Made by a program: the position numbers and the translations under genes. 58,420 nucleotides of DNA from a virus (taxonomy: Duplodnaviria > Caudoviricetes). The stretch is taken from the IMG/VR virus record IMGVR_UViG_3300026543_000167, positions 1-58,420 of that record. One strand, written 5' to 3'. Within the stretch, counting starts at the first letter, position 1. Each line of letters opens with the position of its first letter. Shown here one piece after another: positions 7,191 to 50,502 of the stretch. The notes under the pieces were generated by a model. It was not told the origin of the DNA. It searched no databases and was given only the letters and a program-made list of their open reading frames with translations.

Positions 7191-7383
7191 GGACGTGTCC
7201 TTTGTTTTTTGATCTTTTTTGTTTGTGGCTTGGGCGCTTAGAATTGCGAAACAACCTTTTTAGGCGATTGGTAATGCGTCCATTGTCCTTGGTCAAAATG
7301 TCGGGACCTAAACTTCCCTGCAAAAATCCTGATGTTGCTTTTATTTGTTCATCACGAGCTTGCATAATTTTTTCCTTTAAAAA

Positions 7384-7453
7384 AGCCTATGGCGGGATTC
7401 GAACCCGCGACCACTGGGTTAGAGCCAGTTGCATTCCATTCTGCCACATAGGC
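7384..7453 (-). tRNA. tRNA with CUA anticodon (amber suppressor)
   Basis: Acceptor GCCTATG/CATAGGC; D-arm GCA-GAATGGAA-TGC; anticodon arm ACTGG-CTCTAAC-CCAGT; T-arm GCGGG-TTCGAAT-CCCGC; U73; no encoded CCA. Confidence 0.85.
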
Positions 7454-7461
7454 TTCCAAAT

Positions 7462-8139: not shown

Positions 8140-8688
8140 GTCATCGCTGTCTCCTTTTGGGTTTCTCTTTCATGATGGCTCGCTATACTTCTCTGGTTTT
8201 CTTTGTTGGTTTGACACGCTTTCTTTTTTTGGGTTTCTTAGATATGATGACGCGCTCCGGATTTACGGGTTTCTCTATTGATGTGACTCGCTTATTTATC
8301 TTGGTTTTCTAGCTGGTATTGACACGCTCCTTTATTTTGGGTTTCTCCAAAAGAATGACTCGCTTACATTAGATGGGTTTCTAGCCTATTTTGACACGCT
8401 ATGGAAATTTGGGTTTCTTTTAAAATGTGACACGCTCCGGATTTACGGGTTTCTACTTGCCTTTGGCACGCTTCATAGCATTGGGTTTCTCAAATATATT
8501 GGCTCGCTTTACTCCTATGGTTTTCTAATCAATATTGACACGCTAGTGTTTTCTGGGTTTCTTGGAAGATATGGCTCGCTTTATTCTATTGGGTTTCTCG
8601 ATTCGCGTGACACGCTTACTTATCATGGGTTTCTATGATTTATTGACACGCTTATTTATCTTGGTTTTCTATATGTGAGTGACATACT
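8140..8688 (-). repeat. TIGR-type dual-spacer guide-RNA array 1 (orphan; 15 units of 36 nt)
   Basis: Plus strand reads TGRCWCGCT-N9-TGGKTTTCT-N9 with an exact 36-nt period. Edge repeats at 8140, 8176 ... 8680; spacers vary. Confidence 0.92.
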
Positions 8689-8692
8689 TAAA

Positions 8693-8767
8693 TACGCCTG
8701 GTGGGACTCGAACCCACAACCATACGGCTTAGAAGACCGTTAAGCTATCCAGTTGCTTTACAGGCGT
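8693..8767 (-). tRNA. tRNA-Arg(UCU)
   Basis: Acceptor ACGCCTG/CAGGCGT; anticodon loop CT-TCT-AA; T-arm GTGGG-TTCGAGT-CCCAC. Confidence 0.92.
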
Positions 8768-20528: not shown

Positions 20529-21581
20529 TTATTTTACATCCCAGACCTTCATGTGTTCTTTCAAGGTTTCCCTTTTTAACCTGGCATATACCAACGTCGA
20601 CCGGATATCCGCATGGCCGAGAATCTTCTGAACCACTTCGAGGGGAACACCAGCGTTGATCATAAAACACGCCGAAAAATGCCTAAAATGATGAAAACTG
20701 GCCCATTGGAATCCGGCGCGTCTGAAAGATCGTAGAACCTGATTTGTCATAGCCTTTGCTTTGATCCCAGGGAAAAACAAATCTTCGTCGCCCAGAGGCC
20801 AGACCTTGATTTGCTTAAAGACATTGCGTAATTTTGCATTAATAGGAATGCTGACCGGGCGTCCGGTTTTGGTTTGGTGGACTTCGATCCACCCAGCCAT
20901 AAGGTTGACATTCTTTTTCTTAAGGTTGACAACGTTGCCCATGCGCAAGGAAGAATAGGCGGCAACCAAACAAGGTAGTCTGTAGACTCCACAAACAAAG
21001 TTGTGGATAACATTCAGCACATCGGACTCCTCTAGGATCTGAGTTTCATCAAACCGTTCCCCTTTATTCTCGAATTTCAGCTTGGGTAGCTGAAAATTAC
21101 GATTTCCCAGACAAACTATTTTTTTCAGGCAACGGAATTCCTTTTTAAGAGTACTTTCCGGTTTATGCTTATTGGCTTCATGGTATTTAAAAACTTCATA
21201 TTCATTGATTTCCCCGATCTTAAAATCGGAAAAATACGGAACCAGGTGGCAACGGATAAGGATCTCTTCCCTTACCGTGGCATTTGGAAGGAATTCATGA
21301 ACCGCCTCCATGAAATCTCTTTTAAATGAATTATATTCCCCTCTTTCTACAGCAAGCTCTAATTCAGCGAATTTTTTGCGAGCCAACCGTTCGTCTGTGG
21401 TGCCCAGGCAATCCCGGATTCTCAGCCCGTTGATGCGTTTCTGGGCATACCATATCTTGTTAACTCCTCTCTGTACCATATATTCGGCCATCGGTTCCTC
21501 CCTTTCGGAATACCGAGGCCATCGACCTTTCCAGTGGGTTGCACTATATACCACACTTTTTCTTTTGATGGAATTGGTCAT
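20529..21581 (-). CDS. int: Tyrosine integrase
   Basis: Catalytic residues R (SLRMG), K (QTKTG), HxxR (FHHFRH), LGH and Y (LVYA). Confidence 0.93.
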   Translation of the reverse strand: MTNSIKRKSVVYSATHWKGRWPRYSEREEPMAEYMVQRGVNKIWYAQKRINGLRIRDCLGTTDERLARKKFAELELAVERGEYNSFKRDFMEAVHEFLPNATVREEILIRCHLVPYFSDFKIGEINEYEVFKYHEANKHKPESTLKKEFRCLKKIVCLGNRNFQLPKLKFENKGERFDETQILEESDVLNVIHNFVCGVYRLPCLVAAYSSLRMGNVVNLKKKNVNLMAGWIEVHQTKTGRPVSIPINAKLRNVFKQIKVWPLGDEDLFFPGIKAKAMTNQVLRSFRRAGFQWASFHHFRHFSACFMINAGVPLEVVQKILGHADIRSTLVYARLKRETLKEHMKVWDVK

Positions 21582-22399: not shown

Positions 22400-23445
22400 T
22401 GAAACGCTCAGCACTGGTGGTTTTCTTGTTCCCGTTGGCTCGCTTGATCTTCATGGGTTTCTTTGACAAAATGGCACGCTAAATTAGTATGGGTTTCTTC
22501 ATTTTCGTGACCCGCTTTGGGATAGTGGGTTTCTTTGAGAATCTGGCACGCTCCGTTTTCATGGGTTTCTATATTTCATTGACACGCTAGTTTAGAATGG
22601 GTTTCTTTATTTTCGTGACCCGCTCTGTGGGTTGGGTTTTCTTCGGACTTTTGGCTCGCTTGCATCTTATGGGTTTCTTTTAGGATTTGACTCGCTACTT
22701 TGTTTTGGATTGCTCGTCGGAATTGACACGCTCCTTCATTTGGTTTTCTTCTTATGATTGACACGCTAATCTAATGTGGGTTACTTTTCTCCTATGACAC
22801 GCTAATCTCCTCTGGTTTTCTTCAAACGGTTGACACGCTTCAAAGATTTGGTTTTCTCTCTCTCATGACTCGCTAATACTTTTGGTTTTCTGAATAGAAT
22901 TGGCACGCTTTATTTTTCTGGTTTTCTTAATCGTAGTGACACGCTTTCTCATCATGGGTTTCTAAAATTGGATGGCTCGCTAGATAACCATGGTTTTCTT
23001 CGATTCCGTGACGCGCTTAAGAGTTATGGTTTACTAAATCTGTATGACTCGCTTACTCTTTTTGGGTTTCTTAGATGTGATGACTCGCTTTCTTTTTTTG
23101 GGTTTCTTAGATATGATGACGCGCTCCTTTCTTGTGGGTTCCTAGTCAACATTGACACGCTTAAAGCTCGTGGTTTTCTCGCCCAACATGGCACGCTTTC
23201 GTTTTTTGGATTTCTTCACTTAAATGGCACGCTTAACAACAATGGTTTACTCATGGAGTATGACTCGCTCGCAGGTATTGGGTTTCTGAAATGATGTGAC
23301 TCGCTAGGGACCAGTGGTTTTCTTTCTCATGTTGACTCGCTTTCAGAGAGTGGTTTTCTCCCTCGATATGACTCGCTTTCTGTTTCTGGTTTTCTTTGCT
23401 AATTTGGCTCGCTCTATGATATTGGATTTCTTTGTTCGTTTGACT
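22400..23445 (-). repeat. TIGR-type dual-spacer guide-RNA array 2 (29 units, 36-nt period)
   Basis: RNA-strand unit WGYCA-N9-AGAAAMCCA-N9-AGCG. The first AGTCA overlaps the TAG of the upstream Nop-domain gene. Three spacers are 8 nt. Confidence 0.93.
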
Positions 23446-24505
23446 ATCCGGCCTTATGAACCTTTCCTAGCTTGCCCTCAGAATAACTGGTTGAAACAGG
23501 CAATCCTTCAATCGCTCGCCAGTTTTTATGCAAGTCGATTAAAAATTGTTTGATCATATATCGCATGGACATGTTATGGCGGTGTCCTTTGGTCTTTTCG
23601 ATATGGTCAGGATGATTTTCTATCCGGTTTTTATAGTCTCGATAAATAGTGCTATACGGGTTTTCCCCAGCCCGTAAAAAAGAGGAAGCAAGCACACCAA
23701 TCAATTTGGTCTTTAACCAGGGGTTAAAAGTGATCCCCATTTTAAAAGCTACATTTTCATGCTTATCGATATACTCTGTTTGGACCAAATGTTCCTTTTT
23801 CTTGGAACGTCCTTTTTGATCACCAGCCCAAACATAAATTAATTTAGCCTGTAGATTTTCTTCTTTATAAAAAATATGCAATTCATTTGGCGCACCTTCC
23901 TTCTCGAAGTGCGTAAAGTTGAACCTATCTTTAAAAGTCCAAAAAGGTTTTTTCGTAGGGAAATCGTAAGCAATTTTATTAGGATTAATAAGGTTTTCGA
24001 TTCTATCCAATTCCCATTCTGCAACAACATCGAGTCCTGCATATTTCCACAAGCTGGATGGATATTTGCATCGATAAATATCAATTTCCGATATCAACAA
24101 GCCTGCCATCGCCGGACCAATTCCCTTAACGTTTGACAAATAATCAGAATAGATTGGATATTCGTTCAACATCGAACCCAGTCTTTTAAAATGACTGATT
24201 TCCTGGGTTTCTAGGCTGATATACTGGGCGACTAAACAAAGCTCAGTAAACGTGCTGATAATCTGATCGCCTTCAAAACTTGATTGCCGTGGAAAAGTTT
24301 TTACATTGTCCGTAATTTTTTTATAACTTTGCCTGATTTGTATTAGCAATTCTTTCCCCTTTTCATCAAGAGTGTCTTCACTTTCACTAGGCTTTTGGCC
24401 CAGTCGCGCCTTGAAATTGGCAACGATACGATTCCCCATTTGAATACGTAATTTTTGCAAGTCATAAGCACCGCGTACAAATATCTTCAAATTTTCAGTT
24501 TCCAT
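23444..24505 (-). CDS. TIGR-associated (Tas) Nop-domain RNA-guided protein, TasA-like with an internal insertion
   Basis: N-terminal coiled coil (YDLQKLRIQMGNR); IS110/Nop-like L..VKGIGP..AG.LISEI...SSLWKYAGL; FNP.LKTKL...Y..YK.R...H...A/SMR.MIK.FL.DL. No N-terminal DEDD/RuvC domain. Abuts the array. Confidence 0.85.
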   Translation of the reverse strand: METENLKIFVRGAYDLQKLRIQMGNRIVANFKARLGQKPSESEDTLDEKGKELLIQIRQSYKKITDNVKTFPRQSSFEGDQIISTFTELCLVAQYISLETQEISHFKRLGSMLNEYPIYSDYLSNVKGIGPAMAGLLISEIDIYRCKYPSSLWKYAGLDVVAEWELDRIENLINPNKIAYDFPTKKPFWTFKDRFNFTHFEKEGAPNELHIFYKEENLQAKLIYVWAGDQKGRSKKKEHLVQTEYIDKHENVAFKMGITFNPWLKTKLIGVLASSFLRAGENPYSTIYRDYKNRIENHPDHIEKTKGHRHNMSMRYMIKQFLIDLHKNWRAIEGLPVSTSYSEGKLGKVHKAG

Positions 24506-46701: not shown

Positions 46702-48876
46702 TTAAATTGGCAACGCTTCAATTTGTTGTAAAATTTCCTTATCAATATCGGCACGTTCCTTTGCGATTTTCGATTCATTGACGCGGATGTCTGATGCCGT
46801 TTTTGCCTTATCCAATGAAAGCTCTACGATATTCTTGACCGCCTGAGTTTTCTTCAATTCAGCACTTGCGAGATTATCAAATGATTTGGAATCAAGATTT
46901 TTGGCTTCAGAAACAAACTTGATAGCCTCGCCTTCCGCCTGTTTCGCAGAAGCTTTCAAAAATTCTTCCTGCGAATTTGGTTGCTGTTGCTGTTGAGCTT
47001 GCTGGAACATTTGAATTTCTTCATCGGTTTCAGGTTCCATAACACCCATTAAAATTAAGTTTCGTCGACCGATCTTTCTCTTTGCTTCTGACCCTGGACC
47101 CGTGGAGTTTATAAACATATTGGATAGGGTGACCATGGCGAATTGTTCGGACCCTGGGATATTTTGCATGGCAGCCAGCATCGCTTTGTCTTCTTCGACT
47201 TCCTGTTCACGCAAGGTCTCGTATTGAGGTCCAACATCCGAATAAACCCTGAAATCCTGATCTTTAATATTATTGGTTTGTATGACCTCACCGCTCTTAG
47301 GGTCAAATACATTTTTCATCAACTCAACAGAGGTTTCCGTACCATCCTCACCGATAATTCTCATCATTCGATTCGTGGTATATGTTTCTACGGCTTTTGA
47401 AAAATATATAACCCCCATCCATTGAATGGCTGTTGCAAAATTTTCCATAATGGGCTGCGTTGCCAGATCCTGAACTTTCTTAATCGCGGCAATAGCTTTG
47501 CCAGAAGTATTCGCATCAAAAGTTTCTTGAGGAGCACCTCCCATCAATTTATCCAATATCTGTGGAATGAGTTGTAAAAGCATTCCGGAACTTGGGTCTA
47601 TTTGCCTCGCTTTGAGGTATCCAACGGGACCGGTCTGCACAATTTTACCGTCATCGTCGGTAACGTTATCCAAAAGTAAATAAGATTGGGCGCTGGGGTT
47701 TGCCCATTGTGCCGACGCCACTTCATTTTCCATTTGCTCAGGAGTAAAAATGGGAATATCGGAGTTGCTGGAAGACGCCGTCTCCATGAGTTGAGACATT
47801 AATGAGTTGAATACTCGACCAGAATCTTTCAACGGTCGAACCACTCCACGATACCATTCCTCGCCATCGACATATCCCCGGTGAGCATAGACAGGGACTA
47901 TAGGAATTCTCATTCCTGTGATTAATTTGGGCTCCATGAAAATTGCATCGCCACTGAAAATGGATTTCTCAATTCCCTGTTTTTCAATCACTCGTTCCCT
48001 GATAAATTTTAAATGCGGGGCTTTTCTCAATTCTGATTTTATTTCTTCATGTTCCTTTTCTGAATAAAATTCTTTTTCTTCCTTTACGCTATTAAAATAA
48101 ACAAAGACTTTTTCTTTTATTTTTTTTATATTATATCTAGTGGCAATATAAATTCCTGGTTCAGCTTCGTTAAACCGGTTGCTGCCACTATTACCACGGT
48201 GATAATTTTCTGGATCATAGGCAGATGATGGGATTTCATTGGGGAATTTTTCTTTAAAGGAATCCAATGTGTAACGCGTCAAGACATTGACATGTCTGGC
48301 ATCACTTTTATCCATTTCCTGCGAAGCATTGTCCCAGATAACTGTATTGTAAGCGTTGAAAATGGACCTGATCTCTATATCCAATAATTCATTTTCGGGG
48401 TCTGCCTTATCGACAAATGCTTCAGCCAATTTCAATGCGCCAAAACCGCAAGTGATCGCTTCTAAAACAGCATTATCGAGAGCCTTTTTACCTCGTCCGA
48501 AAGAATTGAAATCCCGGCGAAAAATTCCATTCATTAACTTTGCATCTTTATCTGTGGTTTCTGGATTATCACCGGGCTTAAAATCAACTCCCATACGGTT
48601 TTTATTCCATTCCCCCAAAAGACGTGTCACAAAATTTGTGATCAATGGAAATTCAAGCCGAACTCGATCAGACGTTTCATCGTCAAAGAAACCTTCCCAA
48701 GATCCACCGACGATATACACATATCGCATATCTTCACTGGCTTGTTCCCTTTGAATAATAGTTACGTCTGCATCCGTATTGAGATCTTTTTTGAAATCAT
48801 TCAATAATGATTGGAGATCATCATTGTCTCTTTCTGCAAACGGGATATCGTCTAAATCCAATTCTTGTACAGGCAT
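46702..48876 (-). CDS. Portal protein (P22 gp1-like)
   Basis: 724 aa; A...A...GFGA..L, IP.VPVY..R.YVDG.E...G.VR..KD..R..N and DVGP.Y.T.R. Confidence 0.9.
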   Translation of the reverse strand: MPVQELDLDDIPFAERDNDDLQSLLNDFKKDLNTDADVTIIQREQASEDMRYVYIVGGSWEGFFDDETSDRVRLEFPLITNFVTRLLGEWNKNRMGVDFKPGDNPETTDKDAKLMNGIFRRDFNSFGRGKKALDNAVLEAITCGFGALKLAEAFVDKADPENELLDIEIRSIFNAYNTVIWDNASQEMDKSDARHVNVLTRYTLDSFKEKFPNEIPSSAYDPENYHRGNSGSNRFNEAEPGIYIATRYNIKKIKEKVFVYFNSVKEEKEFYSEKEHEEIKSELRKAPHLKFIRERVIEKQGIEKSIFSGDAIFMEPKLITGMRIPIVPVYAHRGYVDGEEWYRGVVRPLKDSGRVFNSLMSQLMETASSSNSDIPIFTPEQMENEVASAQWANPSAQSYLLLDNVTDDDGKIVQTGPVGYLKARQIDPSSGMLLQLIPQILDKLMGGAPQETFDANTSGKAIAAIKKVQDLATQPIMENFATAIQWMGVIYFSKAVETYTTNRMMRIIGEDGTETSVELMKNVFDPKSGEVIQTNNIKDQDFRVYSDVGPQYETLREQEVEEDKAMLAAMQNIPGSEQFAMVTLSNMFINSTGPGSEAKRKIGRRNLILMGVMEPETDEEIQMFQQAQQQQQPNSQEEFLKASAKQAEGEAIKFVSEAKNLDSKSFDNLASAELKKTQAVKNIVELSLDKAKTASDIRVNESKIAKERADIDKEILQQIEALPI

Positions 48877-48896: not shown

Positions 48897-49163
48897 CTAA
48901 TTAAGAATGGCCTTTCGGTCACTTAACGGATTGCATGGACATGGTGCTCCTGCTCCACCGCAACATTCACACTCCCCCCAATCCCATGGTGTTGTTTCGT
49001 GGTTTTCACAAACCCAACCCTGTCCTTCGCAATTCTGACATCCAACGTCCGCGTGGTCTAAATCATGGATATCTTTATGATCTTTGCTCATATCGATTCC
49101 TTTAATTTCTTCCGGTATGGCCAAAACGTTTGACCTTTGGAATATTTCGATAAATTTCATCAT
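48897..49163 (-). CDS. Small Cys-rich hypothetical protein
   Basis: C..C.G.GWVCENH...PW....C.C.GAG.PC.CN. Confidence 0.55.
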   Translation of the reverse strand: MMKFIEIFQRSNVLAIPEEIKGIDMSKDHKDIHDLDHADVGCQNCEGQGWVCENHETTPWDWGECECCGGAGAPCPCNPLSDRKAILN

Positions 49164-50502
49164 GGTTTTTCTTTTTTGGTTTAGTCAACCCAGGGAATAA
49201 TTCATAAATCCCCCATACAAACCAATCCGCTCTATTGGGAGATTTGCTTCCGGTGTATCCGGTTGTGGTGAAGGATGTCAATTCATCCTCCATTTCATCG
49301 AACCGTCCAACAAATTTTATTTTTCCGGTCTCATGCAATGCACTGACTGGTTCCGCTCTGATGGCCTTCCCTTTGGAAGCCCTTACAGATTTGTAAGAAA
49401 TAAGGGGTTTTGCCGTTCTAACAACGTACTGGACCATGGCACCACCAAAATTTTCCTCTCCAACAACCCGATCGGCCTCATGCCGGTCATAAGCGGATGC
49501 GACCACTTTCCCCCATTCTGCAGGCCCAACATGCAAGGTCAGATCTTCTAAAACATAGGCTATTCCATCTGATCCTAATGAAATCACTCCGATACCGATA
49601 TCATCATTGTGCTCTTCGGGATTGTCGCTTGCACCGGATGGGTCCACGGCAACCACGGTGCGCACGATATGTACATTTTCTGGAATAGAGTCGACACGAT
49701 TGTCATTGAGAATTTTATCGGTCCAAAGCGCGTTTTCATTGTCATCCCCGAAAATTCCGAGGTAATAACGATCGCGCCGCCGCTTGGGCAGGTTGTCAAG
49801 CGACTTTAAATACATTTCAGAAAGATTATCCCGGTTATCCACTGGGTTCATCTTGAAACTTGTATAATTTTCCGGATCTTTTAATGCCAGTTTTTCTTCG
49901 GGCTCAATTTTATCTATGAAAAGTTTATGGCTCCAATGGCTTTTGAAAGGTGGGTTCTCATCGCAAAACATTTTTAGGCGCAATTCTTTGATTTCGTCAT
50001 CAACGTCATAAAAACATTGTTGCGCCAAACGAGTGACCAGGGTCAGATAACTTCCGTAAGATATCTGAGAAACTTCATTTAGAAAAATGGTGGCGTATTC
50101 ATTGCCAAGGATTTTTTCAGTCCTTTCTTTATCATCCAGACCTCCAAACCAAATACGTGAGCCATTCCTAAATTCAACGAACCAATCAACGTTATTTGAT
50201 TTGCACCGGACAGTTGGGAAACACAATTCCATGACTTTGGGAAAAGTATCGTAAACGATGGAAGCCTTAACATGGTTGAACCGGAAACGTGCTATCAAAT
50301 GGCGGGATTTTGGAACGGCTAAGGCACGAATCAAGATCGACCGAACGAAAGTGAAAGTTTTTGTCGACCGTGCACCTCCATAAAACAATATATTGGTCGC
50401 CGGTGAACTGATAATATCGACGGCATCACTTTGTTTTGAGGTTAATACAAAATCTTTTTTTTGAATTAATCCATCAGAGGTTGCCAGCATCTTTATCTCC
50501 AA
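49102..50502 (-). CDS. terL: Terminase large subunit
   Basis: Walker A GGARSTKT, Walker B IFLNE and nuclease motifs VAVDP...E.NFGG...SPNRAD. Confidence 0.93.
   Translation of the reverse strand: MEIKMLATSDGLIQKKDFVLTSKQSDAVDIISSPATNILFYGGARSTKTFTFVRSILIRALAVPKSRHLIARFRFNHVKASIVYDTFPKVMELCFPTVRCKSNNVDWFVEFRNGSRIWFGGLDDKERTEKILGNEYATIFLNEVSQISYGSYLTLVTRLAQQCFYDVDDEIKELRLKMFCDENPPFKSHWSHKLFIDKIEPEEKLALKDPENYTSFKMNPVDNRDNLSEMYLKSLDNLPKRRRDRYYLGIFGDDNENALWTDKILNDNRVDSIPENVHIVRTVVAVDPSGASDNPEEHNDDIGIGVISLGSDGIAYVLEDLTLHVGPAEWGKVVASAYDRHEADRVVGEENFGGAMVQYVVRTAKPLISYKSVRASKGKAIRAEPVSALHETGKIKFVGRFDEMEDELTSFTTTGYTGSKSPNRADWFVWGIYELFPGLTKPKKKNHDEIYRNIPKVKRFGHTGRN

Follow-up and report, generated by a model that had tools for sequence, protein, structure and literature searches.

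A guide unit shared by the two arrays of a phage-encoded dual-repeat TIGR-TasA system

The phage and its TIGR-TasA locus

Our analysis covered a whole virus record of 58,420 bp, a complete phage record that is called the window throughout. Its minus strand carries the majority of the genes, and the features that concern us are collected in Table 1. The phage encodes a dual-repeat TIGR-TasA system, which is of a known kind and has two arrays. The nearest relative found was G001, an IMG/VR record of 62,005 bp whose Tas protein is 82% identical. G001 is collinear with the window at a nucleotide identity of about 65-90%, and its two arrays occupy positions orthologous to those of the window. The search for closer relatives returned at best a 5% match to Ralstonia phage RSL1 among GenBank phages, and at best 62% Tas identity among metagenome contigs. 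Since Tas relatives were found in MAGs from many phyla, the host is not assignable.

Table 1. Positions of the arrays, their copied units and neighbouring genes in the window
Feature	Position	Strand	Remarks
tRNA, anticodon CTA	7383-7454	-	tRNA-Pyl by ARAGORN; just downstream of array 1
TIGR array 1	8149-8688	-	15 units; 14.7 kb from tasA; 4 nt after tRNA-Arg
Duplicated tract, copy 1	8217-8258	-	unit A1.13 = 8221-8256
Half-unit copy in A1.12	8257-8274	-	rare loop variant AGAAACCCG + spacer B; identical to 8437-8454 in A1.07
Half-unit copy in A1.11	8293-8310	-	loop + spacer B; identical to 8653-8670 in A1.01
tRNA-Arg(tct)	8693-8767	-	directly upstream of array 1, same strand; 4 nt between its end and the first (degenerate) edge of the array (region 8689-8767)
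Tyrosine integrase	20529-21581	-	PF00589, E 3.4e-20; downstream of array 2 by about 0.8 kb; a single small ORF between
TIGR array 2	22400-23449	-	29 units + terminal edge
Half-unit near-copy in A2.26	22499-22516	-	rare edge AGCGGGTCA + spacer A; 1 mismatch vs 22607-22624 in A2.23
Units with an 8-nt spacer	22733-22909	-	A2.15, A2.16, A2.19; 35-nt units
Unit A2.10	23054-23089	-	diverged tandem copy of A2.09; mismatches: 1 in spacer A, 2 in spacer B, 1 in the edge
Duplicated tract, copy 2	23086-23127	-	unit A2.09 = 23090-23125
tasA	23444-24505	-	P0001, 353 aa; NCBIfam NF052498; PDB and Foldseek matches to TasR, TasH
TasA insertion	23822-24019	-	66 aa, residues about 163-228
Portal protein gene	46702-48876		
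Large terminase gene	49102-50502		

The assignment of the TasA protein rests on several matches. It scored 118.1 bits against the NCBIfam model ('TIGR-Tas system RNA-guided endonuclease'; cut-off 100), and its sequence matches in the PDB were TasR (9mty) and TasH. Its AlphaFold2 model, with a mean pLDDT of 81, had the same two proteins as its sole strong Foldseek matches (E about 1e-6), the IS621 and ISCro4 recombinases ranking below them. Matches to the IS110 family in profile searches were weak. Against Pfam, the Nop model gave no match and Transposase_20 gave a weak one, below its cut-off. The protein starts with a coiled coil that aligns to TasR 9mty from residue 123 onward, and neither a nuclease match in Pfam nor an HNH or RuvC domain was found in it. 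Because it starts at the coiled coil, with no N-terminal nuclease part and no nuclease Pfam match, we place it in the nuclease-lacking TasA type, with the caveat that a 66-aa insertion is modelled at a pLDDT of only 54-68 and has no assigned fold. This insertion, which is beta-rich and follows the conserved GLDV motif, sets the protein apart from other Tas proteins: among 38 that were aligned, it is restricted to the window and G001. For comparison, the Tas homologues in related loci (n=77) are 155-377 aa long.

Across the same alignment of 38 proteins Y341 does not vary, and the conservation of H350 is 90% or more. The Tyr/His loop that is reported to process pre-tigRNA in dual-repeat systems (Xu 2026 preprint, 10.64898/2026.09.09.750476) is one that these two residues would fit. 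No second tas gene was found elsewhere in the window, and the single TasA presumably serves both arrays.

On the minus strand, each unit of the two arrays reads edge (AGCGNGYCA), spacer A, loop (AGAAAYCCA), spacer B, in 36 nt. This strand was assigned because in related loci arrays share the strand of tas, in 99/99 array-tas pairs. The 44 units that the sequence-only reading had counted are there (15 in array 1 and 29 in array 2), and the 'guide units' of that reading can now be named as the tigRNA units of a TIGR-TasA system, given the NF052498 match and the TasR/TasH fold. All their spacers are 9 nt long save three of 8 nt. In dual-repeat arrays, box D (UG) is expected at the start of both repeats and box C (CCA) at their end, with covariation between edge and loop. 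Here both repeats end in CCA or YCA and begin with AG, not UG; box motifs may diverge while covarying (Faure 2025, PMC12045711). At the array ends, the first edges and the last edge are degenerate, and the degenerate first edge of array 2 overlaps the tasA stop codon. Array 1 is an orphan, with no tas gene of its own. Note also that the spacers of the 44 units are A-rich on the transcribed strand, A making up 45% of the bases of spacer B and 37% of those of spacer A.

In most respects the locus resembles the dual-repeat TIGR-TasA systems already described. These have a Nop-domain Tas protein without a nuclease and are phage-borne (Faure 2025, PMC12045711; Xu 2026, 10.64898/2026.09.09.750476), and their 36-nt unit is made of two alternating 9-nt repeats with 9-nt spacers (Faure 2025, PMC12045711). 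As occurs in those systems, array 2 directly follows tas on the same strand, with a degenerate first edge, and the C-terminal Tyr/His pair is conserved. Besides the insertion in TasA, some differences were noted, as far as the covered parts of these papers go. The repeats of TasR arrays start with UG and those of the window with AG. The window carries a second, orphan array 14.7 kb away, behind a tRNA gene. Finally, no terminator-like site was found on the minus strand at either array end, the counts of our promoter and terminator scans being at shuffle level; in dual-repeat TIGR loci, a rho-independent terminator is expected after the truncated edges at the array ends. A wider likeness is that to box C/D snoRNA clusters and IS110 bridge RNAs, with which the system has in common a Nop-type RNA-binding fold and a tandem-guide architecture; it differs from them in that it has no DEDD/RuvC transposase domain, no fibrillarin partner and regular 36-nt arrays.

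From family membership and the conserved Tyr/His pair, we suggest that both arrays would be transcribed on the tas strand and cut to 36-nt guides. These guides would direct a TasA dimer to 18-bp sites, leading to binding and repression and not to cutting. That TasA would bind rather than cut is suggested because it has no nuclease domain and because repression by TasA has been published (Xu 2026, 10.64898/2026.09.09.750476).

The genes around the arrays deserve a short comment. Array 1 may be co-transcribed with tRNA-Arg and released via tRNA processing; no tRNA-Arg(tct) was found by ARAGORN in G001. The tRNA with the CTA anticodon is a potential amber suppressor and is conserved in G001 (C1:55657-55728), which prompted a check for TAG recoding. 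TAG terminates just 11 of the 103 stop-to-stop frames of at least 100 codons, read-through adds little frame length, and there is no clear sign of recoding. Concerning integrases such as the one near array 2, it has been speculated that those of phages might get help from TasA (Faure 2025, PMC12045711).

The duplicated unit and other copies in the window

The sequence-only reading had pointed to a 38-mer present in both arrays. This proved exact, with two occurrences in the window (8221-8258 and 23090-23127), and no further match at up to 3 mismatches was found in the window or in 100 shuffles. The identity extends to a maximal tract of 42 nt, which stops at one end before the 5th base of the next edge, a variable position, and at the other before the third-from-last base of spacer B in the preceding unit. 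The tract thus holds two bases of the preceding spacer, the edge variant, spacer A, the loop, spacer B and the leading AGCG of the next edge, which is invariant. The edge variant within it (plus TGACGCGCT, minus AGCGCGTCA) is indeed rare, as had been stated: it is found in 3/44 units, and two of these are the duplicates. Given the composition of the spacers, the probability that at least one of the 946 unit pairs would agree by chance at 18 spacer bases is about 2.6e-7. The unit next to the array 2 copy had been described as a near-copy, and is one, with three spacer mismatches and one edge mismatch over 23054-23089.

The all-vs-all comparison of units that had been proposed was also run. Among the units of the window, same-type spacer pairs at no more than 1 mismatch numbered 5/903 for spacer A and 5/862 for spacer B. 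The controls gave 1/1,808 in cross-type pairs and 0 in three reverse-complement comparisons. Besides the full-unit duplicate and its diverged neighbour, the window has copies of half a unit, that is, one repeat with the spacer next to it (Table 1).

The sequence-only reading had further suggested that the duplicated spacer pair might mark an important target, and no target came to light. For the 44 units, no self-target was found in the window at up to 2 mismatches in either geometry, and the counts at 3-4 mismatches equalled those of mis-paired controls. Likewise, 1,670 units searched against 1.16 Mb of related loci gave 0 exact matches in either geometry. In viral contigs, the predicted 18-mer of the duplicated unit had exact matches in 29 stretches for the 3'-overhang geometry, compared to 12 for the letter-reversed control and 44 for the other geometry. 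These 29 matches were judged to be at chance level and were rejected as targets; they lie in unrelated AT-rich contexts of 21-38% GC.

Copied units in related contigs and in the sister phage

Viral contigs were scanned for the pattern edge-N9-loop-N9-edge, which was present in at least 119 stretches, and 114 contigs, including the window and G001, were parsed. Among the matches listed, 107 contigs had arrays of three or more units, with 1,811 units. Note that the array parser misses terminal units; its recovery in the window was 42/44.

Exact full-unit duplicates occurred in 10/107 contigs among the matches listed; three of these (L042, L091 and L143) are near-identical to one another. The duplicate pairs were 12 within arrays and 2 between arrays, again among the matches listed. 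Duplicates between arrays are therefore rare, being present in 2/28 of the multi-array contigs among these matches, namely the window and L069. Arrays 0 and 1 of L069 have four consecutive units in common, with 0-3 changes per unit; because this contig has two tas genes, the block has the look of a segmental duplication that took in tas as well as the array.

At the level of single spacers, exact same-type matches within contigs numbered 43 for spacer A and 43 for spacer B in 23,133 unit pairs (among the matches listed). The same unit pairs gave 2 cross-type matches and 0 reverse-complement matches as controls, and copies thus keep their type and orientation. When chained, the matches listed formed 25 tracts with spacer A only, 26 with spacer B only, 11 AB tracts in phase, 3 BA tracts out of phase, 1 ABA and 1 ABAB. 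The repeats next to the copied spacers tended to be the same variants too. Among the matches listed, a copied spacer A had its upstream variant in common in 20/25 cases and its downstream variant in 16/25, and a copied spacer B did so in 24/26 and 20/26 cases, respectively. The background for such sharing is 0.44 for edges and 0.25 for loops. Moreover, where one spacer of a unit was identical, its partner lay within 3 mismatches in 12/27 and 8/29 cases among the matches listed, the background being about 3%.

Diverged copies were also present. There were 25 non-redundant near-duplicate unit pairs, 1-3 bases apart, among the matches listed, of which 5 were adjacent and 4 between arrays. Their changes were 34 transitions vs 22 transversions and fell at all spacer positions.

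Comparison of non-identical arrays from close relatives revealed 1 to 21 whole-unit gaps per comparison, at internal positions, together with 0 to 4 substitutions; no half-unit or replaced-unit aligned pairs were found in these comparisons. One such group (L039, L105, L096 and L114, all from IMG/VR) has many identical units in common, in the same order, with whole-unit blocks that differ internally and with one unit that is placed differently in different relatives. Their arrays look mosaic rather than polarised.

In the 106 other contigs, the units of the window had 1 exact half-unit match vs 4 in the cross-type control, among the matches listed. The arrays of G001 have 26 and 38 units. Its distal array carries 4 exact full-unit duplicates and several half-unit copies, and one spacer A and one spacer B are common to its two arrays. 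In this distal array of 38 units (C1:53580-54945; L058, L010, L029), there is also a triplicated spacer A family, and one 9-mer occurs as spacer A as well as spacer B. Comparison of the units of the window with those of G001 gave 1, 3 and 11 pairs at 4, 5 and 6 mismatches, vs 0.4, 2.3 and 8.4 expected from mis-paired controls. Because the similarity of units between the two phages is at the level of the controls, we conclude that the turnover of spacers is much faster than the divergence of the genes around the arrays. Duplication with point mutation cannot explain the absence of shared units, and another source of spacers must therefore exist.

The origin of the identical pair

The identity of the tract with its bounds, the repeat variant inherited along with it and the recurrence of such copies in relatives are direct observations. 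From them, we consider it highly probable that one unit was recently copied between the arrays as DNA and in register, giving the identical pair, and that the neighbour A2.10 stems from an older tandem duplication and has since diverged through point mutation. One 36-bp tigRNA-coding unit would have been copied at the DNA level, in register and in either direction, by insertion or by conversion. In array 2, the unit family would have been duplicated in tandem earlier, one of the copies then diverging by point mutation. The 9-bp edge repeats would have served as anchors, and the likely route would be non-reciprocal recombination, gene conversion or template switching. A reciprocal crossover between direct repeats 14.7 kb apart would delete the interval, including the integrase gene, and for this reason non-reciprocal conversion or template switching seems more likely. 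The sequence-only reading had proposed that units are copied between distant arrays by recombination or gene conversion and then diverge. Copying followed by divergence fits the rare edge carried along with the spacers, the diverged tandem neighbour and the recurrence in G001 and related contigs; the route named is one that we, too, can only infer.

Several points count against a DNA copy. The homology available for recombination is just 9 bp per repeat, and the copied tract is a single unit whose downstream edge differs at its 5th base. Exact duplicates between arrays are rare among the matches listed, and the spacers of the window and G001 call for a source other than duplication. The excess of in-phase over out-of-phase duplicates (11 vs 3) could be due to selection on functional units rather than to the mechanism of copying.

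Other explanations of the pair have to be considered. The same target could have been captured twice, once per array, with selection for an important target keeping the copies identical. That some spacer-gaining route operates is indicated by the window and G001 arrays, which have no units in common beyond chance despite their collinear genomes, and the route of spacer gain, like the origin and expansion of TIGR arrays, is called unknown in the covered parts of Faure 2025 (PMC12045711) and Xu 2026 (10.64898/2026.09.09.750476). However, the rare edge variant present in 3/44 units was copied along with the spacers. In the 107 contigs, repeat variants accompany the copied spacers far above background among the matches listed, and DNA copying is therefore favoured over repeated capture of one sequence. 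Most of the changes between near-duplicates are transitions, and the target searches gave none that would motivate selection, all of which makes two independent captures improbable. The copying could instead have passed through RNA, a processed 36-nt tigRNA being reverse-transcribed, or used as template, and inserted in the other array. The informative part of the tract, from base 5 of the upstream edge to base 4 of the downstream edge, is 36 nt and has the length of a mature tigRNA, which starts and ends mid-edge (Faure 2025, PMC12045711). This boundary is uninformative, however, given that AGCG is invariant in every edge. Moreover, the complete downstream edge is also common to 10/11 full-unit duplicates among the matches listed, and the out-of-phase tracts (3 BA, 1 ABA) and the 51 single-spacer tracts among these matches are better explained by breakpoints in any repeat. 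Both flanking edges are complete in most duplicates and some tracts are out of phase, for which reasons the RNA-templated route is not favoured, and we regard it as very improbable.

A short-read misassembly in the repetitive array might also have created the second copy, as the record is a metagenome-derived viral contig. Against this, unique units stand on either side of each copy, the 42-nt tract is shorter than an ordinary read, and G001, which was assembled independently, has a collinear order of genes across both arrays. With like duplicates present in 9 other contigs among the matches listed, an artefact is the least probable of these explanations.

Returning to copying at the DNA level, whole units, and sometimes patches of repeat-spacer-repeat, would be recurrently duplicated, moved and lost. 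We propose, as a tentative generalisation, that dual-repeat TIGR arrays may be cassette arrays in which the main change is in-register recombination of 36-bp units rather than leader-polarised capture. Units would be duplicated in tandem or at a distance, converted between the arrays of one genome, and exchanged or lost among related phages. New specificities would then arise largely by duplicating and mutating units, and the copy between the arrays of the window would be a fresh instance.

CRISPR arrays offer a parallel. There, recombination between repeats can duplicate, delete and shuffle units, and TIGR arrays, being repeat-spacer arrays too, are likewise open to recombination between repeats. 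The resemblance has limits: TIGR systems lack Cas1-Cas2 and leader-polarised addition, and the differences between close relatives are internal; TIGR repeats are just 9 nt long, and a unit is two spacers copied together. Spacer loss through recombination is cited in Faure 2025 (PMC12045711), where duplication is mentioned for CRISPR repeats. Duplication of units within or between TIGR arrays is not described in the parts of Faure 2025, Xu 2026 and Guan 2026 that were covered; their supplements or TIGRSafari may list this locus or its duplicates.

The suggestion in the sequence-only reading that the pair bears on spacer gain holds for one part of the question, the expansion of arrays by copying; the origin of new spacers is not explained by duplication. 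What emerges is a partial and testable model of array expansion, in which recombination at 9-bp repeats would multiply whole units that then mutate. Its limit is that duplication on its own leaves the complete turnover of spacers between sister phages unexplained. For the engineering and annotation of TIGR systems, the window indicates that natural arrays tolerate repeated units, and that orphan arrays far from tas are tolerated as well.
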